In this document: in pieces, positions 2,976 through 20,408 of the stretch
Numbering within the stretch: the first letter of the stretch is position 1
Layout: each line of letters starts with the position of its first letter
Source: a virus
Taxonomy: Duplodnaviria; Heunggongvirae; Uroviricota; Caudoviricetes
Virus record (IMG/VR): IMGVR_UViG_2737471845_000026
Coordinates: 1-20,408 of that record
DNA: 20,408 nt
Direction: 5' to 3' (one strand)
Made by a program: the position numbers and the translations under genes
The notes under the pieces: model-generated
The model's input: only the letters and a program-made list of their open reading frames with translations
Told to the model about the DNA's origin: nothing
The model's database searches: none

Positions 2976-3000
2976 TTAAAAAGCCTTCACTGCGGAAGGC
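2976..3000 (-). terminator. Rho-independent terminator overlapping the 3' end of the 65-aa ORF
   Basis: Minus-strand hairpin GCCTTC-CGCAGT-GAAGGC (plus 2983-3000) followed by TTTTTAATTT. Confidence 0.45.
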
Positions 3001-3184
3001 GTCTGTAACAACCGAACTGATAATCTGCCAGACCCGCCATAACAAGCTGGGTCAGTATTAACTGGCAGCGTTCGCGTGAAAGGTAAGTATTCTGCGCAAT
3101 TTCCCCGATGGTCGCCGGTTCGGTGACGCTTAATTCATTAAATACCACTCTGGCTGTTTCGGTCATATCCTGCTGTTTTAGCAT
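2987..3184 (-). CDS. Small hypothetical protein, 65 aa (possible DNA-binding fold)
   Basis: Internal ATG at 3184 preceded by AAGGGAAAAAG. The listed 111-aa ORF starts with TTG inside the upstream terminator hairpin, so the shorter start is preferred. Confidence 0.4.
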   Translation of the reverse strand: MLKQQDMTETARVVFNELSVTEPATIGEIAQNTYLSRERCQLILTQLVMAGLADYQFGCYRRLPQ

Positions 3185-3305
3185 GTCTTTTTCCCTTTTC
3201 TGGTTAACGTGACATACCAATAACTCTTGTCTGAAAAGCCAGCAAGCTGAAAGACCAGTATTCGCAACCACCAGCGCGTTTAACGTACTGCACCACTTTT
3301 CGGGC

Positions 3306-3330
3306 ACAAAAAACCCGCTCAATAGCGGGC
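3306..3330 (-). terminator. Rho-independent terminator immediately after the DUF2335-like gene
   Basis: Minus-strand hairpin AGCCCGCT-ATTG-AGCGGG (plus 3314-3329) followed by TTTTTTGT; starts 1 nt after the stop at 3331-3333. Confidence 0.55.
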
Positions 3331-3861
3331 TTATTCTTCTTCATTGGTATTAGGCGTCGGCATTTGTCGTGACAGACCAGATGCTCTGCCCATTATGAAA
3401 ACGGATGCCAATCCTATCAGATCAACAGTAATCAGCGTTCCAGCAAAAACAGTATTACCTCTCCAGGCAAAGACGGTTGCTATCAGCAAAATTAAAAGCG
3501 TTATCGAGTAAGCCATCCATTGACCACGCCTGTCTTTTTTTATTGTTCCCGTGACCGTTGTTTTCTGCATTTCATGACGATGAGCCTGCTCTTTCTCACT
3601 TCTTGCCATTATCCGCTCAGCAGCACCTTCAACTATATCATCGTATTCACGTAGCATTGATGGTGGAGGAAGCGGACCACGGAAATAGGTTTGACTTACT
3701 ATGGCTCTAAATTGAGGTCGCTCGAGGAGCCGTTCAAGAACATTTGGATTTTCAACCAGCTCCCCTTCTATCTCTTTAGCCAGCTGTTCTGAACTCTTAC
3801 ATGAATCGTTATCGTGCAGTGGCAAGCTGGCGTTTAAGTTTTCTTGCTCTGAGTCTTGCAT
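3331..3861 (-). CDS. DUF2335-like predicted membrane protein (176 aa)
   Basis: Central motif SQTYFRGPLPPPSMLREYDDIVEGAAERIMARSEKEQAHRHE followed by two hydrophobic helices (ITLLILLIATVFAW, LITVDLIGLASVFIM); recognised as the DUF2335 family from memory. Confidence 0.6.
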   Translation of the reverse strand: MQDSEQENLNASLPLHDNDSCKSSEQLAKEIEGELVENPNVLERLLERPQFRAIVSQTYFRGPLPPPSMLREYDDIVEGAAERIMARSEKEQAHRHEMQKTTVTGTIKKDRRGQWMAYSITLLILLIATVFAWRGNTVFAGTLITVDLIGLASVFIMGRASGLSRQMPTPNTNEEE

Positions 3862-4024
3862 ATGGCCTCATACTTGTCCGTAAGTCATCGCCTACAGCCT
3901 GGAAATCCGAACGTAAAGCATCAGCGTCAGATTTATGAACAACCAGTGCTGTATAATCAGTAGCAGGTATCAGGTCTATGATGCTACCTGCGGCGCGCAT
4001 GATTCTGCGAGTTGAGCGCAACAT
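3809..4024 (-). CDS. Hypothetical protein, 71 aa, overlapping the start of the DUF2335-like gene by 53 nt
   Basis: ATG at 4024 preceded by a near-consensus SD (TAAGGAGGTACGGT-ATG). Its C-terminal overlap region is Arg-rich. Confidence 0.5.
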   Translation of the reverse strand: MLRSTRRIMRAAGSIIDLIPATDYTALVVHKSDADALRSDFQAVGDDLRTSMRPYARLRARKLKRQLATAR

Positions 4025-4221
4025 ACCGTACCTCCTTACATAGTTAACATCTTATAGATCACCTTTGGGGTAATCTTAGAATGAGCCATGCAAGCTGTAC
4101 AGAATTATTTTATAGCGCACGACTTTCAAATTGGCGCACATAAAAGCAATTCCCCGTAAAAACACAGCAAACGAAGAAAGCAAACTATGCTGGAATCAAC
4201 TATGGACTTCACTGTTTTTCC

Positions 4222-4248
4222 GGCACAAAAACCCGCTCGTCGGCGGGT
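4222..4248 (-). terminator. Rho-independent terminator about 80 nt downstream of the Q-like gene (tR'-like)
   Basis: Minus-strand hairpin CCCGCCGACGAGCGGG (plus 4232-4247) followed by TTTTTG. Confidence 0.5.
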
Positions 4249-4296
4249 TGTAAAAATTATTTTAACGTCAGGCATAATACGCCCATCGTTGTGGAA

Positions 4297-4329: not shown

Positions 4330-5151
4330 CTATCGCGTTACCTTCTTTAACTGCCACTCCGCCCATGCCTCTTCAATGTCAAACCGAACCACCAACGTAT
4401 CGTAAAAGCGCTTCACTGATTTTTTCCACGTATCAAGTGTAATAGCACTCGTCACTTTGCATATGGCATTAAATGCCTCCGTTGATGGCAGTCGTTCATA
4501 ACCACGACCGCCACAACGTTGGCAGTCCCTGATAACAGGCATCCCCCGTTTTTCCGACTCTTCACGATAAATGGCAACACCACGCCCACGGCAATCTTTA
4601 CAGGCAGTGGAAATCTCCCCCTTCCCTTTACATTCAGGACAGGAAACTTTCACCACCTCCCGGATTTTTTTCCATTCTTCCCAGTAAGACGGATACACAC
4701 CTTTCGTACACTTTGCCCATACTGGCGGCTTGCCATCCGGATACTGAACCTTGCTTGTAAAAACTTCGCTTTCAATAAATTTTTCCCCATGGCAACAGGG
4801 GCACTGCTTTTTACTCGCAGCACTACGGGCATAATCCTCAAAAGCATACGAAGCCATAATGCGCATCACTGCCGGTTTTATTTCTGCCGGAAGTTTTCTT
4901 AACGCCGCCACACTATCGCACTGACTTAATGCATAATCTGCCAGTAATTCTGTTGCCCGCACTCTGTCATTCATACTGATGCCCATTTTCCCCAGGAACG
5001 CAGAAAATCCCATCTCAGCCCGGTTCTGTGTCATGCCCTGTGCAGCCATCACATCAGTGATACTCAGTGCATCTTTTGATGTCGAGGCGGATGCATCAGT
5101 CAGGCCTGGCGATTTCGGGGAATAGTATTTCGGTAAATCTTCCAGCTTCAT
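4330..5151 (-). CDS. Late-gene antiterminator Q-like protein (273 aa)
   Basis: Sits directly downstream of rusA with an ATGA start/stop overlap, the canonical Q position. Multiple CxxC zinc-binding motifs (CPCCHG, CPECKGKG, CKDCRGRG, CQRCGGRG). Assignment rests on synteny and motifs, not alignment. Confidence 0.65.
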   Translation of the reverse strand: MKLEDLPKYYSPKSPGLTDASASTSKDALSITDVMAAQGMTQNRAEMGFSAFLGKMGISMNDRVRATELLADYALSQCDSVAALRKLPAEIKPAVMRIMASYAFEDYARSAASKKQCPCCHGEKFIESEVFTSKVQYPDGKPPVWAKCTKGVYPSYWEEWKKIREVVKVSCPECKGKGEISTACKDCRGRGVAIYREESEKRGMPVIRDCQRCGGRGYERLPSTEAFNAICKVTSAITLDTWKKSVKRFYDTLVVRFDIEEAWAEWQLKKVTR

Positions 5152-5522
5152 TTTTTGACCTGCCCGTCATGCATTATTTCGTAAATCTTCACGCCCAACC
5201 GACCACCTGGGACAAGCTGACCGCGCACAATATTGATTTCATCAAACTGCTCGTCGTCGATAAGCAACCCCGCATGCGTCAACGCATCCAGCGGTGCTTT
5301 CAGGATATTGTCCAGGTCACGACGGCGTTTATCCGGCGGCTCTGCGATAACCGTTATCGCCAGCCTTCCGGACAGGTTTAATTTCAGCCGCTGCTGGCGA
5401 ACGATAAGCGCCACATCACAGCGATAACGCTTACCGGCTTCCGATATAAAATATGTGCTGCCACGACGTCGCCAGTAAGTGTTCACCGTCGGCGGGTAAG
5501 GCAAAACAAATTCTATCCCCAT
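5148..5522 (-). CDS. rusA: Holliday junction resolvase RusA (124 aa)
   Basis: Matches the RusA pattern throughout (PYPPTVNTYW...PDKRRRDLDNILKAPLDALTHAGLLIDDEQ); SD AAAGAGG 7 nt upstream of the ATG at 5522. Confidence 0.9.
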   Translation of the reverse strand: MGIEFVLPYPPTVNTYWRRRGSTYFISEAGKRYRCDVALIVRQQRLKLNLSGRLAITVIAEPPDKRRRDLDNILKAPLDALTHAGLLIDDEQFDEINIVRGQLVPGGRLGVKIYEIMHDGQVKK

Positions 5523-7340: not shown

Positions 7341-7496
7341 TTACTCCTCAGATTCGTAAGCTGTGAAGACAGTGACCTCCGTCTGGCCGGTTCGGATTCG
7401 TACCTCGCAGAGGTCTTTCCTCATTACCAGTGCCGTCACTATGACGGTTAAACAGATGACGATCAGGGCGATTAACATCGCCTTTTGCTGCTTCAT
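7341..7496 (-). CDS. hok: Hok/Gef-family type I toxin (51 aa), closely HokD/RelF-like
   Basis: Translation MKQQKAMLIALIVICLTVIVTALVMRKDLCEVRIRTGQTEVTVFTAYESEE is a Hok-family hallmark. SD AAGGAG 9 nt upstream. The listed 70-aa ORF is an in-frame upstream extension. Confidence 0.9.
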   Translation of the reverse strand: MKQQKAMLIALIVICLTVIVTALVMRKDLCEVRIRTGQTEVTVFTAYESEE

Positions 7497-7834
7497 AGCC
7501 AGCTTCTCCTTGCCTTTCGGCACGTAAGAGGCTAACCTACATGTGTAAAGCATGAAATTGGCCTCAGATTAATGTTAAGCGTCTTGCCGGACGCGTAATG
7601 TTAACTGGGGCTTTTCTCTGTCTGCCTTACAGTGGCATGCCCGAGGCAGACAGCCTCAAGCACCCGCAACAATCTTACCGACACCGATAAGAAAACGCTA
7701 TTTTTTATTGCCAGAACCTTCTGCCCAGGCTAATGTATCCGCGTCAGAACGGCGCAATGCGCTCGCCTGAGATACGTTTACTTGTCATTGGTGGCAACAG
7801 ATAACGGCAATTGTTATTTCTGTTTGTTTCCTTC

Positions 7835-13517: not shown

Positions 13518-13590
13518 TCAATCATCAAAGCACAACGGTGCGACAGGTCTTAGTTCCGCTACCCCGGCGTTAAGGGGAAATGAGGTCAGC

Positions 13591-13743
13591 ATGGATACTA
13601 TCGATCTTGGCAACAGCGAATCTCTGGTATGTGGCGTGTTCCCCAACCAGGACGGTACGTTCACCGCGATGACGTATACCAAAAGCAAAACGTTTAAAAC
13701 CGAAACTGGCGCGCGTCGCTGGTTAGCCAGAAACACTGACTGA
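13591..13743 (+). CDS. Small protein, 50 aa, first gene of the PL-like transcript
   Basis: ATG 13591 preceded by GGGGAAATGAGG; translation MDTIDLGNSESLVCGVFPNQDGTFTAMTYTKSKTFKTETGARRWLARNTD; stop TGA overlaps an ATG of the next ORF. Below the 60-aa cutoff of the ORF track. Confidence 0.5.
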   Translation: MDTIDLGNSESLVCGVFPNQDGTFTAMTYTKSKTFKTETGARRWLARNTD

Positions 13744-13754
13744 TGAGGTTGACG

Positions 13755-14393
13755 ATGGAATTTAAAGATTTACCAATATCAATACAGGAAATGGCCGCTG
13801 ATGTGATTCGCTCGCAACTGGCGCGGAACCCAATGATATTAGTAGATAAAGTGTTCATCATAAATTTATCAAATCATGTCCGCAATTCTTTTACCGGACT
13901 GTATTCAGATTCGTTCACAAACAATCATTGTGTAGAAAATAAAGCAAAGCCCATTGCAGAAACGATAACGCAAAACATCAATACGAAACAAACCGAAGAA
14001 GAAATTGACCAGTTTACCCGAGATACTGGCTTAAAATGCAGGAAAGAAAAATCGCCATATGCGGGGAATATGTTTGTTTATGACAACCTTATCCGAATTC
14101 GTGGCGAAATTCCGACTGAATACCTAGCAAGAATTCACCGGGCATTACTTAAAAATCTGGAAACGGAAGTATTTGATGGCAATACCAACGGCTCCTTCGT
14201 GGTGTCAACTCTCGCAAAAGAGTGGGATACAGATAATCGCTGGAATGTTGCCACATGGTTATTCAGCAACAAAGCTGCTGCCCTGGAAGCTGCGGCCTGT
14301 ATTTGCGACCTGCTAAGGACAGACCGCAAATACAACCTGGATGTGTATAGCTATATTTATGCTGAACACTATCCGCTATGGATTAACTGGTAA
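13755..14393 (+). CDS. Uncharacterised soluble protein, 212 aa, AT-rich, in the repressor-adjacent exclusion-gene position
   Basis: ATG 13755 with SD GAGG (7 nt); alternative ATG at 13743. No TM segments or recognisable catalytic motif; lower GC than the core phage genes. Confidence 0.65.
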   Translation: MEFKDLPISIQEMAADVIRSQLARNPMILVDKVFIINLSNHVRNSFTGLYSDSFTNNHCVENKAKPIAETITQNINTKQTEEEIDQFTRDTGLKCRKEKSPYAGNMFVYDNLIRIRGEIPTEYLARIHRALLKNLETEVFDGNTNGSFVVSTLAKEWDTDNRWNVATWLFSNKAAALEAAACICDLLRTDRKYNLDVYSYIYAEHYPLWINW

Positions 14394-14603: not shown

Positions 14604-15290
14604 TTTATCCTCCATTGAAGTTACTGGTTGAGAATGGAGACCACACGTGACAGCGTGTTGTCGTGCGCCGGACACGGATAAGAATCCGGCACTGACAGTT
14701 TACTGAAAGAATATATCCCTGAAAAGTCAGGGCATAACTCGAAAGCGCACGGCGGAGGTGTCTTTTCCTTAGAAGGCTTGTCGTTAGATTTCTTCGACCG
14801 TGCGCTTCCGGTTGTGGCACTCCGCGAAATGGCGCGGCGGTAAGTATGGCGGGGTTATCCTTACCCCATTAGTGGCACCGGGTTGTCAGGTTGACCATAC
14901 GCTTAAGTGACATCCCCGCTGCAACAACCCATGTTGATTACCTTTTGGCGGGTATCCGTTTTTTGTTTTCCCTTGTGATACCAGCCCTTTTTAAAGTGAA
15001 TTTTGTGATGCGGTGAATGCGGCTAAGCGCACGCGGAACAGTTAAAAAGGACAGTTGACATTCGTATTGGTTCTTATGGGTGGGTTATCTGTATCCGGCG
15101 TTAATTGTTAACTGGTTAACGTCACCTGGAGGCACCAGGCATCGCATCAACAAAATTCACTTCAGTGATGAAAGGTGAGAGAAAATGTTGAATGTAGCTA
15201 TTGAAAACCAGAACGGGTGGAATTATAGTGCACCTGCACCTCATAAAACGGGTGCCGGGATTTGCACCCCGATGATCACTAGAGCGCATA

Positions 15291-15312
15291 ACCGCGCCAA
15301 AGCGGTTTTTTT
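15291..15312 (+). terminator. Intrinsic-terminator-like hairpin plus U-tract inside the leader upstream of rha (possible attenuator)
   Basis: ACCGC-GCCAAA-GCGGT followed by TTTTTTT; embedded in a larger inverted repeat GCGCATAA...TTATGCG. Confidence 0.45.
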
Positions 15313-15478
15313 ATGCGTAAAGCGCAGCCACATTCAGATTATGGTGGGGCGTATGGGGCCGTTTTCGGGCGGGCCGGATTCTCTAGTGACCGGTAGTGCA
15401 AACCCTGTACGTCTCACCACCCATGAGATTTGCACCTACGGTGGTGAGTTTACCAACTTATCACTAGAGGCTGCCATC

Positions 15479-16033
15479 ATGGCTACTATCCCTACCCTGT
15501 CTCACCCTGACGTAACCATCGAAAACGGTCGCGCTATCACTACGTCTGTTGCGATCGCAGAGTTCTTTGGCAAACGACACGACAACGTGTTACGTGCCAT
15601 CGCAAACATTGAATGCTCAGAAAAATTTAACGCCCTCAATTTTGAGGACGTAACGTACACCGACGCCAAAGGCGAAAAACGTCCAATGTACCAAATCACC
15701 AAAAACGGCTTCGTTTTCCTGGTGATGGGCTTCACTGGCAAAAAAGCCGCTGCATTCAAAGAGGCCTACATTGCTGAGTTCGACCGCATGGAGGCAGAGC
15801 TGCGTCAGAATAACACCCCACCAACTGACAAAATAATTCCTGGCGATGGTCGCACTCTGGTTGTTCGCTTCGACGAACACGGCAATATCAAATTCACCGA
15901 AACCGTTCCTGATGGTGCAATGGTCTGTACTCTGGATACCTTCCAGTTTTATCTGGAGAAACAGGGATGGACACTTGTAAACCGGAGCGCAATTAGAAAC
16001 ATGACTGTCGAACAATTGCTGCGTATTAAATAG
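15479..16033 (+). CDS. rha: Phage regulatory protein Rha (Rha domain), 184 aa from ATG 15479
   Basis: Rha-domain signature VTIENGRAITTSVAIAEFFGKRHDNVLRAIANIE...ITKNGFVFLVMGFTGKKAAAFKEAYIAEFDRME; SD AGAGG 8 nt before ATG 15479. The in-frame upstream extension to 15185 is judged non-coding. Confidence 0.75.
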   Translation: MATIPTLSHPDVTIENGRAITTSVAIAEFFGKRHDNVLRAIANIECSEKFNALNFEDVTYTDAKGEKRPMYQITKNGFVFLVMGFTGKKAAAFKEAYIAEFDRMEAELRQNNTPPTDKIIPGDGRTLVVRFDEHGNIKFTETVPDGAMVCTLDTFQFYLEKQGWTLVNRSAIRNMTVEQLLRIK

Positions 16034-16551: not shown

Positions 16552-18987
16552 ATGAGTATTGATAAAGAAGAATTTGCACTATATTGCGAAGCAAAAAATG
16601 ACAAAGTCAGAAAACGCCTGGGAATTAAAGGCGGTTTTTACTGGACTACAGCAAAAAAATTATCTGTTGCAATCTCCCGCTGCATTACCGCAATGGATGA
16701 CAACGATTATGATGAAGACGACTTTAAAAAACCGGTCCGAGTCCATTTACCCGTTGTGAATGACCTTCCACCGGAAGGCGTGTTTGATACGGAATTCTGC
16801 AACCGATACGAAAAAGGCGGGGAAGATGGCATCACAATGGTATTTATCGCCCCATCTCCCTCTGCGCAGGACAACCAGGTCAGCACTGACAATACCAATG
16901 TTAATGGCGAAGACATGACGGAGATTGAGGAGAATATGCTACTCCCGATTTCCGGTCAGGAACTGCCCATTCGCTGGCTTGCTCAACACGGCAGCGAAAA
17001 ACCGGTAACGCACGTTTCACGCGACGAACTCCAGGCATTACACATTGCACGGGCTGAAGAACTACCAGCTGTTACTGCCCTGGCTGTTTCCCACAAAACC
17101 AGCCTGCTCGACCCGCTGGAAATTCGCGATCTCTACAAACTGGTTCGTGACACTGACAACGTTTTCCCTAATCCTGGTAATTCAGACCTGGGACTGATGA
17201 CTGCTTTTTTCGAAGCATACCTGGGCGCTGACTACACTGATCGCGGTCTGCTTACAAAAGAGTGGATGAAGGGGAATCGTGTTTCACGTATCACCCGCAC
17301 GGCTTCCGGTGCAAATGCCGGTGGCGGGAACAAAACCGATCGCAATCCGAATTTAGTACACACCTTCGATACGCTGGATGTGGAGATTGCAGCAGCCACA
17401 CTTCCGATGGATTTTAATATTTATGAAATTCCGGGCAGCGTTTATCGTCGCGCAAAAGAAATCGTCCTGAAAAGAGAAAGTCCGTTCAAAGAATGGTCCG
17501 CAGCACTTCGCGCAACCCCGGGTATTCTGGATTATTCCCGCGCCGCTATTTTTGCACTTATCCGGAGCGCATACCCTGAGTTTTATCATTACCCGGGACG
17601 CCTTCAGAGGTATATCAATGCCTATTTAACGGAGACTGATCACGAGAACCCTACCGAGGAAACTCTCACTGCTGCACGACATACACCGGAAAAAGATATC
17701 CTGGAAGAAGTTAACCGCGAACTGGCCGCTGAACGCGAAACAGAAGAAGAAAAAAATAATGAGGAAAAATCACAACCGTCTGACGCAATGGCAGATGAAC
17801 AGGCAACGACTGAAGCAATGGGACAGGATACAACTGAATATCGCCAGGACACTCAATCGCTGGATACTCAGGCACAGATAAATCCGGTTAATCAGGTAAA
17901 AGTTACCGCTGACGAAGTAAACAAAATTATGCAGGCAGCCAATATCAACCAGCCTGATGCCGACAAAATACTGGCAGTCCATCGCGGTGAATTCGTTGAC
18001 GGAATTAGCGACCCGAATGATCCGAAATGGGTTAAGGGGATTGAAACCCGCGATTCTGTGAACCAGAACCTGCCAGAATCGGAACAAAACAGCCAAAATG
18101 CGTTACAAAACGAGCCAGAAACGAAACAGCCTGAACCAGAAGAGCAACAAGAACCGGAAAAAGTCTGCACCGCCTGCGGTCAGACCGGTGGCGGCAACTG
18201 TCCTGACTGTGGCGCGGTGATGGGCGACGCAACATACAAGGAAACATTCGATGAAGAGAATCAGGTTGAAGTTCAGGAAAATGATCCGGAGGAAATGGAA
18301 GGCGCTGAACATCCACACAAGGAGAATGCTGGCAGCGCTCAGGACCACGCCAGCGATGATGAAACTGGCGAGGCGGCAGATCACTCAATTAAGGTGAACG
18401 GTCATCACGAAATCACATCCACCAGCAGGACGTGTGACCATCTAATGATCGACCTCGAAACCATGGGAAAAAACCCTGATGCCCCGATTATCTCAATAGG
18501 TGCAATATTTTTCGATCCGCAAACCGGAGATATGGGACCGGAATTTAGTAAGACTATCGATCTGGAAACTGCTGGCGGAGTCATTGATCGGGACACCATT
18601 AAATGGTGGCTGAAGCAATCACGCGAAGCTCAATCTGCCATTATGACCGATGAAATCCCGTTAGATGATGCACTGTTACAATTGCGAGAATTTATCGACG
18701 AAAACTCCGGTGAATTTTTTGTTCAGGTCTGGGGAAATGGAGCCAACTTCGACAACACGATTTTGCGCCGTTCATACGAACGGCAGGGGATCCCCTGCCC
18801 GTGGCGTTACTACAACGATCGCGATGTACGCACAATCGTTGAGCTGGGGAAAGCCATAGACTTCGATGCCAGAACGGCTATTCCATTCGAAGGTGAGCGC
18901 CATAATGCACTTGATGACGCTCGTTACCAGGCAAAATACGTTTCAGCTATCTGGCAAAAACTGATCCCGAGTCAGGCTGATTTTTAA
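16552..18987 (+). CDS. RecE-like (exodeoxyribonuclease VIII-like) protein with a C-terminal DnaQ-like DEDDh 3'-5' exonuclease domain, 811 aa
   Basis: Residues about 110-600 resemble the non-catalytic N-terminal region of Rac RecE as I recall it ([45 protein letters not shown]; zinc ribbon [16 protein letters not shown]). The last 180 aa carry Exo I (MIDLETMG), Exo II (GNGANFD) and Exo III ([10 protein letters not shown]) motifs. SD GAGG 8 nt before the ATG. Confidence 0.85.
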
Positions 18988-19051: not shown

Positions 19052-19300
19052 ATGGCAAGACTTATTCTGCTCACTGAGTGGGCAAAAGAGGAATTCAGCG
19101 ATCCGGTCCCGACTCCGGGCACGTTAAGTAAATACGCTAAAGCCGGAATGATATTTCCTCTCCCCAAAAAAGTTGGAAGACACTGGCGAGTGGATCCACG
19201 AGCTCGCTTTGTCGGAATGGTAAACAAGCCGGAGGTGATCGCCACAGATCACCCTGCTTTGAAGAGGATACTGGAAGATGGCGCGCCCGCGAAAATATAA
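19052..19300 (+). CDS. xis: Excisionase, lambda Xis-like (82 aa)
   Basis: LILLTEWAKEEF...MIFPLPKKVGRHWRVDPRARFVG parallels lambda Xis (LTLQEWNARQ...IFPPPVKDGREYLFHESA); overlaps the int start by 23 nt as in lambda. Confidence 0.7.
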   Translation: MARLILLTEWAKEEFSDPVPTPGTLSKYAKAGMIFPLPKKVGRHWRVDPRARFVGMVNKPEVIATDHPALKRILEDGAPAKI

Positions 19301-20408
19301 AACCGAAGTTCCGGGACTATCTCCGTATTTTGACAAAAGAAATAACAAAGTTTACTGGCGTTACAGGCATCCCATAACAGGCAAAAATCACGGTCTCGGC
19401 AGTATTGACCAGAAACTGGCAGAAACTATTGCAGCAGAAGCGAACAGCCGTCTTGCCAGGCAGCAAATGGAACAAATGCTCAGTCTGCAGGAGAAAATTA
19501 TTAATGATACCGGCGGTTCATCAACCGTTTCCATTTTTCTGAATAATTACAGAAAAATTCAACAGGAAAGATATGAAAACGGAGAGATCAAACTCAACAC
19601 GCTGAAACAAAAAGCGGCCCCTCTCAGGGTATTTGATGAACGTTTTGGCACCAGACCGTTAGATGCCATAACCGTAAAAGATGTGGTATCGGTGCTGGAA
19701 GAGTACAAGGCCAGAGGACATAACAGAATGGGACAAATTTTCAGGAAGGTACTGATCGATGTTTTCCGGGAAGCTCAGCAAACGGGCGATGTCCCGCCAG
19801 GCTTTAACCCTGCAGAATCGGCAAAAAAACCGCAGGTGCGGATATCAAGACAGCGACTGACTTTTGATGAGTGGATGATGATTTATAACGCAGCGGAAAA
19901 GGATGGTTATTTTTTACAGCGCGGCATGCTGCTGGCACTGGTGACAGGCCAGCGCCTTTCAGATATTTGCAAAATGCAGTTTTCGGATATCCGGAATGGT
20001 TATCTTCATGTCGAACAGCAAAAAACAGGAACCCGGATTGCCATCCCTCTGGCTCTGCGTTGCGATAAATTAAATCTCACCCTGGATGATGTGGTGTCAT
20101 CCTGTCGCGATAGCGTTCTTAGTCCGTGGCTATTGCACCATCATCACGCGAAAGGGACAGCTAAGCGCGGCGGGATGGTTAAGCCAGCAACGTTAACCGT
20201 TGCATTTAAAAAAGCCCGGGATTCTGTGGATTACAACTGGCGTGCTAATGGCACCCCACCCTCTTTCCATGAGCAGAGATCTTTATCAGAAAGATTGTTC
20301 AGAGAACAGGGAATTGATACCAAAATTTTGCTGGGCCATTCGAATCAAAAAATGACCGATATTTACAACGATGCACGTGGTAAGGAGTGGAAAAAACTGG
20401 TCATTTGA
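19278..20408 (+). CDS. int: Tyrosine integrase, lambda Int family (376 aa)
   Basis: N-terminal arm-binding-like region and a C-terminal catalytic region resembling lambda Int (LTFDEWMMIYNAAE, TGQRLSDICKMQFSDI, HEQRSLSERLF, LLGHSNQKMTDIYNDARGKEW). Stop TGA is the last three bases of the window. Confidence 0.9.
   Translation: MARPRKYKTEVPGLSPYFDKRNNKVYWRYRHPITGKNHGLGSIDQKLAETIAAEANSRLARQQMEQMLSLQEKIINDTGGSSTVSIFLNNYRKIQQERYENGEIKLNTLKQKAAPLRVFDERFGTRPLDAITVKDVVSVLEEYKARGHNRMGQIFRKVLIDVFREAQQTGDVPPGFNPAESAKKPQVRISRQRLTFDEWMMIYNAAEKDGYFLQRGMLLALVTGQRLSDICKMQFSDIRNGYLHVEQQKTGTRIAIPLALRCDKLNLTLDDVVSSCRDSVLSPWLLHHHHAKGTAKRGGMVKPATLTVAFKKARDSVDYNWRANGTPPSFHEQRSLSERLFREQGIDTKILLGHSNQKMTDIYNDARGKEWKKLVI

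Follow-up and report, generated by a model that had tools for sequence, protein, structure and literature searches.

A small-protein gene overlapping a DUF2335 membrane-protein gene forms a mobile moron of temperate phages

Here we describe a pair of overlapping genes in 20,408 nucleotides (nt) of viral DNA (Caudoviricetes; positions 1 to 20,408 of IMG/VR record IMGVR_UViG_2737471845_000026), a stretch referred to throughout as the window. The window is a Rac/lambda-like prophage with its early-right and late genes on the minus strand. Downstream of the gene for the Q antiterminator it carries, in this order, a tR'-like terminator, the two open reading frames (ORFs) of the pair, a second terminator, a gene for a 65-amino-acid (aa) protein, a methylase gene and a gene for an AraC-type regulator (Table 1). 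The initial annotation had seen here a terminator-bounded moron in which a 71-aa frame with a consensus Shine-Dalgarno (SD) sequence overlaps by 53 nt a DUF2335 protein with two transmembrane (TM) segments, and the coordinates, Pfam match and hydropathy confirm this description of the two genes. New here are the generality of the pair, an undescribed family of small proteins, the relation between split and fused forms, and an overlap locked in one frame. Neither the fission/fusion relation and the universality of the +1 overlap, nor an operator-like palindrome and an apparently crippled promoter, had been seen in that first reading.

The two genes and their products

The small-protein gene, ORF1, follows an SD sequence from which strong translation is predicted. 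Its product has the core M..RR.(M/L)RAAGS.(I/L)D(L/I).P.TDY ... SD...(L/I)..DF..VG.DL followed by a variable basic tail, and the alignment of the family yields a conserved core of about 55 residues with P20 and Y24 invariant, G13 and S14 nearly so, and the general pattern GS(I/V)(L/M)(D/N)(I/L)xPxT(D/N)Y ... (S/T)D...(L/I)..D(F/W)..(V/I)G.D(L/M); in 33 of 35 lineages the variable tail carries a net positive charge. Compared with the 77%-identical copy of the Uetakevirus (epsilon15-like) type in Escherichia coli, ORF1 has proportions of nonsynonymous (pN) and synonymous (pS) differences of 0.15 and 0.58-0.60 (0.152 and 0.58 in the part outside the overlap), with a dN/dS of about 0.14. Judged by these substitutions ORF1 is a real gene under purifying selection, and a chance frame is ruled out by the same ratio, by the homologues and by the SD sequences preceding most of 42 distinct ones, which are of the GGAGG type in nearly all and of a weaker AGGAG or GAGG type in a few (L048, L083 and L109; loci and proteins of the survey are cited by L and P numbers).

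Public data hold 14 homologous proteins at 67-93% identity to the ORF1 product, and more distant relatives lie upstream of DUF2335 genes in Klebsiella phages RAH1 and BUCT711 and in Escherichia phage EC.W1-9. A profile of the small protein searched against 1.84 billion representative sequences found 444 clusters at E <= 1e-3, nearly all of them stand-alone proteins of 57-95 aa. The family matched nothing in Pfam, NCBIfam or the PDB, and in PHROGs it corresponds to groups 26284 and 10654, both of 'unknown function'. Gene tables of E. coli and Yersinia assemblies (L116-L124) and the deposited record of Klebsiella phage RAH1 (L001 3787-3984) omit the small ORF, leaving an apparently empty gap of 260-490 nt upstream of DUF2335.

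An AlphaFold2 (AF2) model of the ORF1 product (mean confidence score, pLDDT, 75) consists of a helix at residues 3-16, a loop with the PxTDY motif and a long helix at 33-70. Since the model is not a compact fold, the protein probably needs a partner. The model contains no ribbon-helix-helix (RHH), helix-turn-helix (HTH) or other DNA-binding fold, and a fold search with it came back empty. The N-terminus, S-T-R-R-x-M/L-R-A-A-G-S, was also considered as a twin-arginine translocation (Tat) signal and rejected: the arginine pair is not conserved in Xenorhabdus, L084, L079 and L108, Asp occurs in the segment that follows, and by its topology the protein should be cytoplasmic.

The ORF2 product matches Pfam family PF10097 (DUF2335) over all 50 profile positions (1-50; E 9.1e-20, 70.7 bits against a gathering cutoff of 25) with residues 65-114 (nt 3520-3669), and PHROG 3996 (phrog_3996, 'membrane protein, moron') with E 4.5e-41. 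An acidic, disordered N-terminus is followed by the core GPLPPP..L..Y..I..G.AERI....EKEQ.HRH, by RGQW and by the two TM segments; across the alignment (66 homologues were found) G62, P63, P65, Y73, E89, E91, R95, G113 and Q114 are invariant. The protein thus shares with PF10097 and PHROG 3996 the GPLPPP...AERI...EQ.HR...RGQW core and C-terminal two-TM hairpin, whereas no description that we found of either mentions an obligatory small partner or a split/fused relation. Hydrophobic segments lie at about residues 116-133 and 137-158 (19-residue Kyte-Doolittle means 1.4-2.1), and the AF2 model is a helical hairpin (helices 80-133 and 137-163) with its first 22 residues disordered. KKDRR stands before the first hydrophobic helix and R/K after the second. 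Because of this hydropathy and distribution of charge, the sequence suggests an N-in/C-in topology with both termini and the 115-aa N-terminal part in the cytoplasm. Both AF2 models are of medium confidence, and for either protein Foldseek searches of the PDB and BFVD and profile searches of PDB sequences returned family members or nothing.

No earlier start is available to the DUF2335 gene, as a TGA stands two codons before its ATG; the pairing with ORF1 is therefore not removed by an upstream start, a possibility that the initial annotation had raised. Literature on DUF2335, including PF10097 and COG5346, offered nothing useful, and the family is without known function. The name also occurs in papers on secretion, there presumably as a slip for DUF2235, a confusion that could mislead annotation transfer. 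In these reports on type VI/IV secretion, 'DUF2335' is used for a Tle1-like phospholipase domain (10.1101/2023.07.16.549128, PMC6267618, PMC13600407).

Pairing, overlap and fusion across lineages

We collected 135 DUF2335-encoding loci from genomes, IMG/VR, GenBank phages and assemblies and scanned their stop-to-stop frames with profiles of both proteins. In 133 of them, in phages of Proteobacteria, Bacillota and Actinobacteria, a homologue of the small protein lies directly upstream on the same strand or is fused to the DUF2335 protein. The genes are split in 102 loci (45 lineages at <=80% identity), always with the small gene directly upstream on the same strand and the frames overlapping, by 11-98 nt, with DUF2335 in the +1 frame; 28 loci have the small motif and the DUF2335 core in one ORF. 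A different frame occurs in three loci, one with an indel in the tail and two with a broken small ORF, and a partner was not detected in two: a truncated locus and Lactococcus proPhi6, which has the same layout without significant similarity. Pairs are present in Pseudomonas phage MD8 (gp32/gp31), Arthrobacter phage Gusanita (gp36/gp37), Lacticaseibacillus phage P2.4, and contigs of Bacillota and Megasphaera. The relation also holds in the reverse direction, as the distant small proteins P0109 and P0176 from the whole-library search are each followed by an overlapping DUF2335 gene. The uncharacterised pairing noticed at first is thus near-universal and, with its natural fusions, stronger than originally claimed, and the 71-aa frame is conserved in related loci.

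The fused forms bear on what the small protein is. About 27 Xenorhabdus species encode one 150-aa protein in which the N-terminal motif of the small protein (MNSNIRHYLRVTGSILDIMPANDY) is followed by the DUF2335 core, and in P0073-P0079 and P0228, from metagenomes, a complete small protein with a basic stretch of the KRQLAQA type runs in frame into GPLPPP.... The small protein, or at the least its motif GS(I/V)(L/M)D(I/L)xPxTDY, is the N-terminal domain of the DUF2335 polypeptide in other lineages. Given these in-frame fusions, the small protein amounts by its sequence relations to an N-terminal domain that can be detached from the membrane protein, and it is almost certain that both act as one functional unit.

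Two unusual settings were observed among these loci. In the Xenorhabdus species and one Enterobacteriaceae metagenome-assembled genome (L022-L047, L097, L099; for example L041 2735-4306) the fusion belongs to a chromosomal three-gene cassette, in which it directly follows a cro-like gene that is divergent from a LexA-like cI repressor gene (S24 type); in L041 the cassette is flanked by ordinary chromosomal genes, such as one for a BCCT transporter. In P0176 (L129 4001-5117) an M78 metallopeptidase of the ImmA/IrrE type is fused ahead of the small domain, and the DUF2335 gene follows with a 32-nt overlap in a non-phage chromosomal setting.

In the window the overlap spans 3809-3861, with ORF2 in the +1 frame. 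Most lineages keep an ATG in that frame, usually derived from the ORF1 codons (A/T)AT-GCA or GGA, and a few have GTG or TTG. Because an SD sequence precedes this start in only about half of the lineages and the ORF1 stop lies 11-98 nt beyond it, the layout would fit termination and re-initiation, and translational coupling of this kind is favoured over frameshifting. Coupled pairs of the MS2 lysis gene type resemble this arrangement, having the downstream start inside the upstream ORF, in the +1 frame and often without an SD sequence, and the upstream stop tens of nt further on; persistence across phyla, as seen for ORF1/ORF2, is unusual for them, and the coupling here is deduced from the layout. 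Within the overlap, comparison with the E. coli copy finds the ORF1 frame constrained (pN 0.136, pS 0.635) and the ORF2 frame apparently neutral (0.278, 0.259). The first 17 codons of ORF2 thus evolve neutrally, in agreement with the disorder modelled for the first 22 residues.

With DUF2335 in the +1 frame in 102 of the 105 split loci, the frames always overlapping, and in-frame fused homologues in existence, one might instead think of programmed +1 recoding, by ribosomal frameshifting or polymerase slippage, that yields a small::DUF2335 fusion and makes the two ORFs one gene. A Yersinia overlap holds a run of eight A residues (GGAAAAAAAATC; L016 ~3974-3990), and the fused Yersinia sp. protein P0049 is exactly the product of an allele with one A fewer (A7). 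We nevertheless consider recoding highly improbable for the family. No shift-prone motif is common to the 37 distinct overlaps or adjoins the ORF1 stop, the last codon ahead of that stop is variable, the conserved +1-frame ATG is something that a frameshift does not need, the window overlap has no A-run longer than four, and the first ORF2 codons are the ones that evolve neutrally. In these respects the pair also differs from +1 frameshift genes of the prfB type, ORF2 keeping its own initiation site and there being no conserved shift site. Conservation of the frame can also be explained by inheritance and selection on both genes, which leaves the almost complete absence of losses of the overlap itself in need of an explanation. 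Behind the Yersinia run and P0049 there could be a site of slippage, a frameshift allele of natural origin or an error of sequencing; slippage may play a part in some lineages, though not in the window.

A mobile cassette and its signals

Comparison with a closely related prophage shows how the pair sits in the genome. In the prophage of E. coli ETEC1746, window positions 4400-4212 (91% identity) and 3320-3150 (92%) are contiguous, and the ~918 bp of the pair is missing (blastn). Both flanking matches end or start on the same 29 nt of that reference (positions 193-221), which correspond to an imperfect direct repeat of about 29 nt at the two boundaries of the insert; the repeat is the 3' half of a terminator with its U-tract. 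The terminator at the left edge, downstream of Q, is present in ETEC1746 as well. As had been proposed, the pair is bracketed by two intrinsic terminators, each folding as a GC hairpin with a U-run. The upstream one is no more stable than shuffled sequences (z -0.94; 35 of 200 shuffles fold as well), and its call depends on its shape, a hairpin with a U-tract, instead of on folding energy. In 28 of 39 lineages the DUF2335 gene has a terminator behind it, compared with 61 of 780 background windows (8%). The pair is a mobile, self-contained two-gene moron between Q/tR' and the downstream genes of the late region, which upholds the initial designation.

The cassette occurs in at least seven contexts: downstream of Q, in the antirepressor operon of epsilon15-like prophages, in the interval between tail chaperone and tape measure genes, in a Mu-like baseplate cluster, beside the integrase gene, after the lysin gene, and downstream of cI in the position of rexAB; to these the Xenorhabdus fusion adds the place downstream of cro, in a conserved cI-cro-fusion cassette. 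In one cI-linked copy a 112-aa ORF (L083 3072-3410), by eye Cys/His-rich and resembling a SWIM zinc finger, lies between cI and the pair. The third of these contexts is the slot of the HK97 moron gene 15, whose product causes superinfection exclusion (PMC3594210). Like gp15 and other morons, the pair carries a terminator of its own and, in relatives, a promoter as well; it stands between conserved genes, where some close relatives have it and others do not, several copies occupy the exact gp15 slot, and the product is membrane-located. The two differ in that they share no sequence similarity, the pair comprises two genes where gp15 is one, and most of the DUF2335 protein is cytoplasmic.

Transcription signals of the window copy differ from those of its relatives. 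At the homologous place the relatives have TTGCAA, TTGCAT or TTGACG, a 16-nt spacer and TAAGAT or TAATCT, and RAH1 has TTGATC-17-TATACT just after a terminator. In the window the ancestral -35 element, TTGCAT (4093-4088), stands only 9 nt from the -10 element TAAGAT, a spacer 7 nt shorter, and the remaining sigma70-like candidate matches 8 of 12 consensus positions, so that a promoter scan with a threshold of 9 of 12 gave no match at 4073-4101. From this sequence the cassette's own promoter seems damaged and, because its spacing is broken, the window copy is probably expressed mainly through Q-mediated read-through, on a Q-modified late transcript.

Abutting the -10 element, 35-49 nt upstream of the ORF1 ATG, is a palindrome with a 9/10 match to TTACC-N5-GGTAA, the only match of at least 9/10 in the 20.4-kb window (background, 0.1 per kb). 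It precedes the small ORF in seven other lineages, with 10/10 matches in L002, L003, L012, L013 and L084 and 9/10 matches in L005 and L072, lying 35-80 nt before the ORF and right behind a -10-like hexamer. Further copies in epsilon15-like loci precede neighbouring genes of the antirepressor region, and the palindrome accompanies the pair into lambdoid, Mu-like and siphovirus backgrounds. This position fits an operator. A hairpin in the 5' untranslated region was rejected (z -0.04 against shuffles, and by position the palindrome overlaps the -10/+1 region). A resemblance to an operator of the MqsA or another known type was considered as well, but the positions do not fit.

Elsewhere in the window, besides the genes in Table 1, Pfam identifies an Ash/Rha antirepressor, YdaS/YdaT-like genes, a DnaC/IstB-like loader, hok/sok and DUF968. 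The E. coli prophage without the moron has the 65-aa gene and the methylase gene too, which places both outside the moron; the AraC-family regulator gene is probably further late-region cargo. A hok/gef toxin gene (7341-7553, minus strand) with its sok antisense RNA (Rfam RF01794, 115 bits) occupies 7341-7665 in the early-right region. The isrK (15236-15312) and C4 antisense (15337-15424) RNAs lie at the 5' end of, and within, the mechanically called Ash/Rha antirepressor ORF (15185-16033, plus strand), forming an immI-like control region of the P1/P7 type in a lambdoid prophage. Rfam and tRNA scans found no match inside the ORF1/ORF2 cassette.

Table 1. Features of the window, and palindrome positions in other loci of the survey
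Feature	Position	Strand	Remarks
ORF1, small-protein gene	3809-4024	minus	71 aa, pI 11.4; ATG 4024-4022
ORF1 SD, AAGGAGG	4031-4037	minus	6-nt spacer to ATG, read from sequence
ORF2, DUF2335 inner-membrane protein gene	3331-3861	minus	176 aa
ORF2 initiation region, within ORF1	3859-3870	minus	TGA 3870-3868, GAGG 3869-3866, ATG 3861-3859 (GAGG-N4-ATG)
ORF2 TM1	~3463-3516	minus	
ORF2 TM2	~3388-3453	minus	
tR'-like intrinsic terminator, left insert edge	4222-4250	minus	Downstream of Q; 6-bp GC stem, ACCCGC-N6-GCGGGU + U5, -11.5 kcal/mol
Intrinsic terminator of the pair	3306-3331	minus	9-bp stem + U6, -14.1 kcal/mol, z -3.4; stem begins in TAA stop
Direct repeat (~29 nt, imperfect), left copy	4212-4238	minus	GAGCGGGTTTTTGTGCCGGAAAA...; insert boundary
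Direct repeat, right copy	3292-3320	minus	Insert boundary
Weak sigma70-like promoter candidate	4073-4101	minus	TGTACA (4101-4096), 17-nt spacer, TAAGAT (4078-4073); 8/12 match
Operator-like palindrome	4059-4073		TTACCCCAAAGGTGA
Q antiterminator	4330-5151	minus	Pfam
RusA	5148-5522		Pfam
65-aa protein gene	2987-3184	minus	phrog_331; weak winged-helix-like Pfam hits
N6/N4 DNA methylase	1787-2836	minus	Pfam
AraC-family regulator	972-1700	minus	HTH_AraC/HTH_18; downstream of methylase
cI-like/cro-like divergent pair	13518-14393		Assigned by position; neither ORF with a Pfam match
RecE-like exonuclease	16552-18987		Pfam
Integrase and excisionase	19052-20408		Pfam
Palindromes, L002	1006, 1131, 2191		
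Palindromes, L003	1677, 2089		
Palindromes, L005	4270, 4650, 5691, 5956		
Palindromes, L012	2062, 2489, 3740		
Palindromes, L013	2131, 2590, 3707		
Palindrome, L072	3709		
Palindrome, L084	3594		

What the pair may do

The initial annotation proposed a membrane-acting exclusion or toxin-like pair, a hypothesis that takes its basis from genomic position. The reading we favour, with a probability of about 0.38, is that the pair supplies a membrane effector and its regulatory partner for conflict between phages. We favour it because of architecture and position: a membrane-anchored cytoplasmic domain, a detachable and presumably over-produced N-terminal partner, an autonomous and horizontally mobile cassette that the phage can do without, and sites of the exclusion, defence and conversion kind. 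The DUF2335 hairpin would be the membrane-acting part and the small protein its detachable regulatory or sensor domain; ribosomes would finish ORF1 and then re-initiate at the ORF2 ATG, giving an excess of small over membrane protein, and the module would serve the prophage against other phages at the inner membrane, by superinfection exclusion or Rex-like abortive infection. A bolder version, which we regard as doubtful, makes the pair the first example of a prophage-borne two-part inner-membrane defence or exclusion system that spans phyla, in which a helical cytoplasmic protein of about 65 aa gates the DUF2335 hairpin and the +1 overlap sets their ratio. In a yet more unusual form of it, slippage at A-runs of the overlap would let some lineages alternate between the split products and the fused one.

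Known systems offer partial parallels. The lambda RexA/RexB proteins are likewise a prophage-encoded pair of a cytoplasmic and an inner-membrane protein, a likeness of working logic only, and in L083 and L055 the DUF2335 pair lies downstream of cI on the same strand. They differ in that Pfam scans at E <= 0.1 found no Rex family, RexB has four TM helices where DUF2335 has two, RexA has 279 aa against 71 for the small protein, and the window pair lies downstream of Q and not in an immunity region. P22 SieA is also a prophage-encoded inner-membrane protein of similar size, and the epsilon15-like copies lie in an immI-like antirepressor region, near the place of sieA in P22 (PMC10883804); SieA acts alone, whereas DUF2335 has an obligatory partner, and no alignment was obtained by BLASTP.

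Several observations weigh against a role in phage conflict. Neither protein has homology to known exclusion, abortive-infection or other functions, and BLASTP against P22 SieA and HK97 gp15 gave no alignment at E <= 100. In PADLOC-DB 2.0 the small protein had no hit and DUF2335 matched only HEC-01B (E 0.032), a match dropped as noise after a check of 39 homologues, at most three of which match any model (best E 0.0027-0.0056). The fold searches were without match, the AF2 models are of medium confidence, and the translational coupling is read from layout. Some contexts point to lytic or induced expression, namely the place downstream of Q with a weak promoter, the late tail operons, and the Xenorhabdus position downstream of cro and behind a LexA-like cI. 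The module is also rare: among 5,426 complete E. coli genomes the type found in the window occurs in none and the epsilon15-like (Uetakevirus) type in two.

Such contexts would suit an accessory of the lytic cycle, made late from pR' under Q and acting at the membrane for the phage's own development, possibly by tuning holin activity and lysis timing, by blocking secondary infection of a committed cell, or by handling the membrane as DNA leaves or enters. The window pair is directly downstream of Q/tR' with its promoter spacing broken, many copies are embedded, in the same orientation, in operons of late tail or baseplate genes, holin and lysin genes precede two copies from Firmicutes, and the Xenorhabdus copies follow cro. 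Class II holins are N-in/C-in two-TM hairpins, the topology predicted for ORF2. Holins, however, lack anything like its cytoplasmic domain of about 115 of 176 residues, Pfam gave no holin or antiholin match, and the window has no adjacent endolysin gene; the distance to the lysis genes is about 2.4 kb in the closest E. coli copies. The cassette usually has its own promoter and terminator and is absent from close, presumably functional prophages, and is therefore dispensable for lytic growth, while copies downstream of cI and beside the integrase gene fit lysogenic expression. We think this alternative unlikely. The order of the genes also recalls a toxin and its inhibitor, in which a membrane-damaging DUF2335 protein would be restrained by an excess of its partner (where the two are fused, by the N-terminal domain itself), the whole serving for addiction or for suicide triggered by stress or the SOS response. 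CptA/CptB, GhoT/GhoS and fused toxin-antitoxins follow a similar logic, with a small soluble protein encoded before a membrane protein, a likely excess of the former, and split and fused versions. The strong SD sequence of the small upstream gene, the overlapping membrane gene likely made in lesser amount, the palindrome at the promoter, the LexA-like cI/cro switch ahead of the Xenorhabdus fusion, and XRE and M78 (ImmA/IrrE) domains among neighbours or fusions all accord with such a module, and fused forms are compatible with autoinhibition in cis. Yet neither protein matches a toxin family, and no antitoxin-like family or fold, RHH, HTH or other, was recognised in the small protein. The part retained in fusions is the most conserved part of the small protein, which suggests an integral domain and not a neutraliser, and only 12 of 72,556 plasmid records carry the module, whereas type II-like toxin-antitoxin modules are typically, though not by definition, common on plasmids; this rarity speaks against plasmid addiction. 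We judge a toxin and inhibitor quite unlikely.

A further alternative, to which we give still less credence, makes DUF2335 an anchor that would retain or set free the small protein, or else a domain fused to it, for example an ImmA-like protease, and so feed a membrane signal into lysis-lysogeny or antirepressor circuitry. The pair does recur beside regulators: the antirepressor (Bro-N) operon in epsilon15-like prophages and RAH1, cI/cro and XRE genes, and an M78 peptidase fused to the small domain. In epsilon15-like loci the pair and the antirepressor units have TTACC-N5-GGTAA in common, in lambdoid and Mu-like backgrounds the palindrome still accompanies the pair, and the basic tail is conserved. 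Against this, no DNA-binding fold is predicted for the small protein, many copies lie far from regulators, as in tail operons, and the small domain of fused forms could be released only by proteolysis.

Whatever the pair does, DUF2335, so far an orphan domain, is practically never alone and is one half of a unit of two genes or one fusion, while its small partner is in none of the curated families checked (Pfam and NCBIfam; 'unknown function' in PHROGs) and is often omitted from annotations. As a moron the unit travels among temperate phages of Proteobacteria, Bacillota and Actinobacteria, at sites usual for exclusion, defence and conversion genes. It makes a case for studying why a one-frame overlap survives very deep divergence, how the regulation of a membrane effector is connected with gene fission and fusion, and what number of small partner genes phage annotations lack. 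Should the unit prove to serve defence or exclusion, a widespread family would be added to such systems; should it be an accessory of lysis or regulation, a large orphan family would still gain a role.

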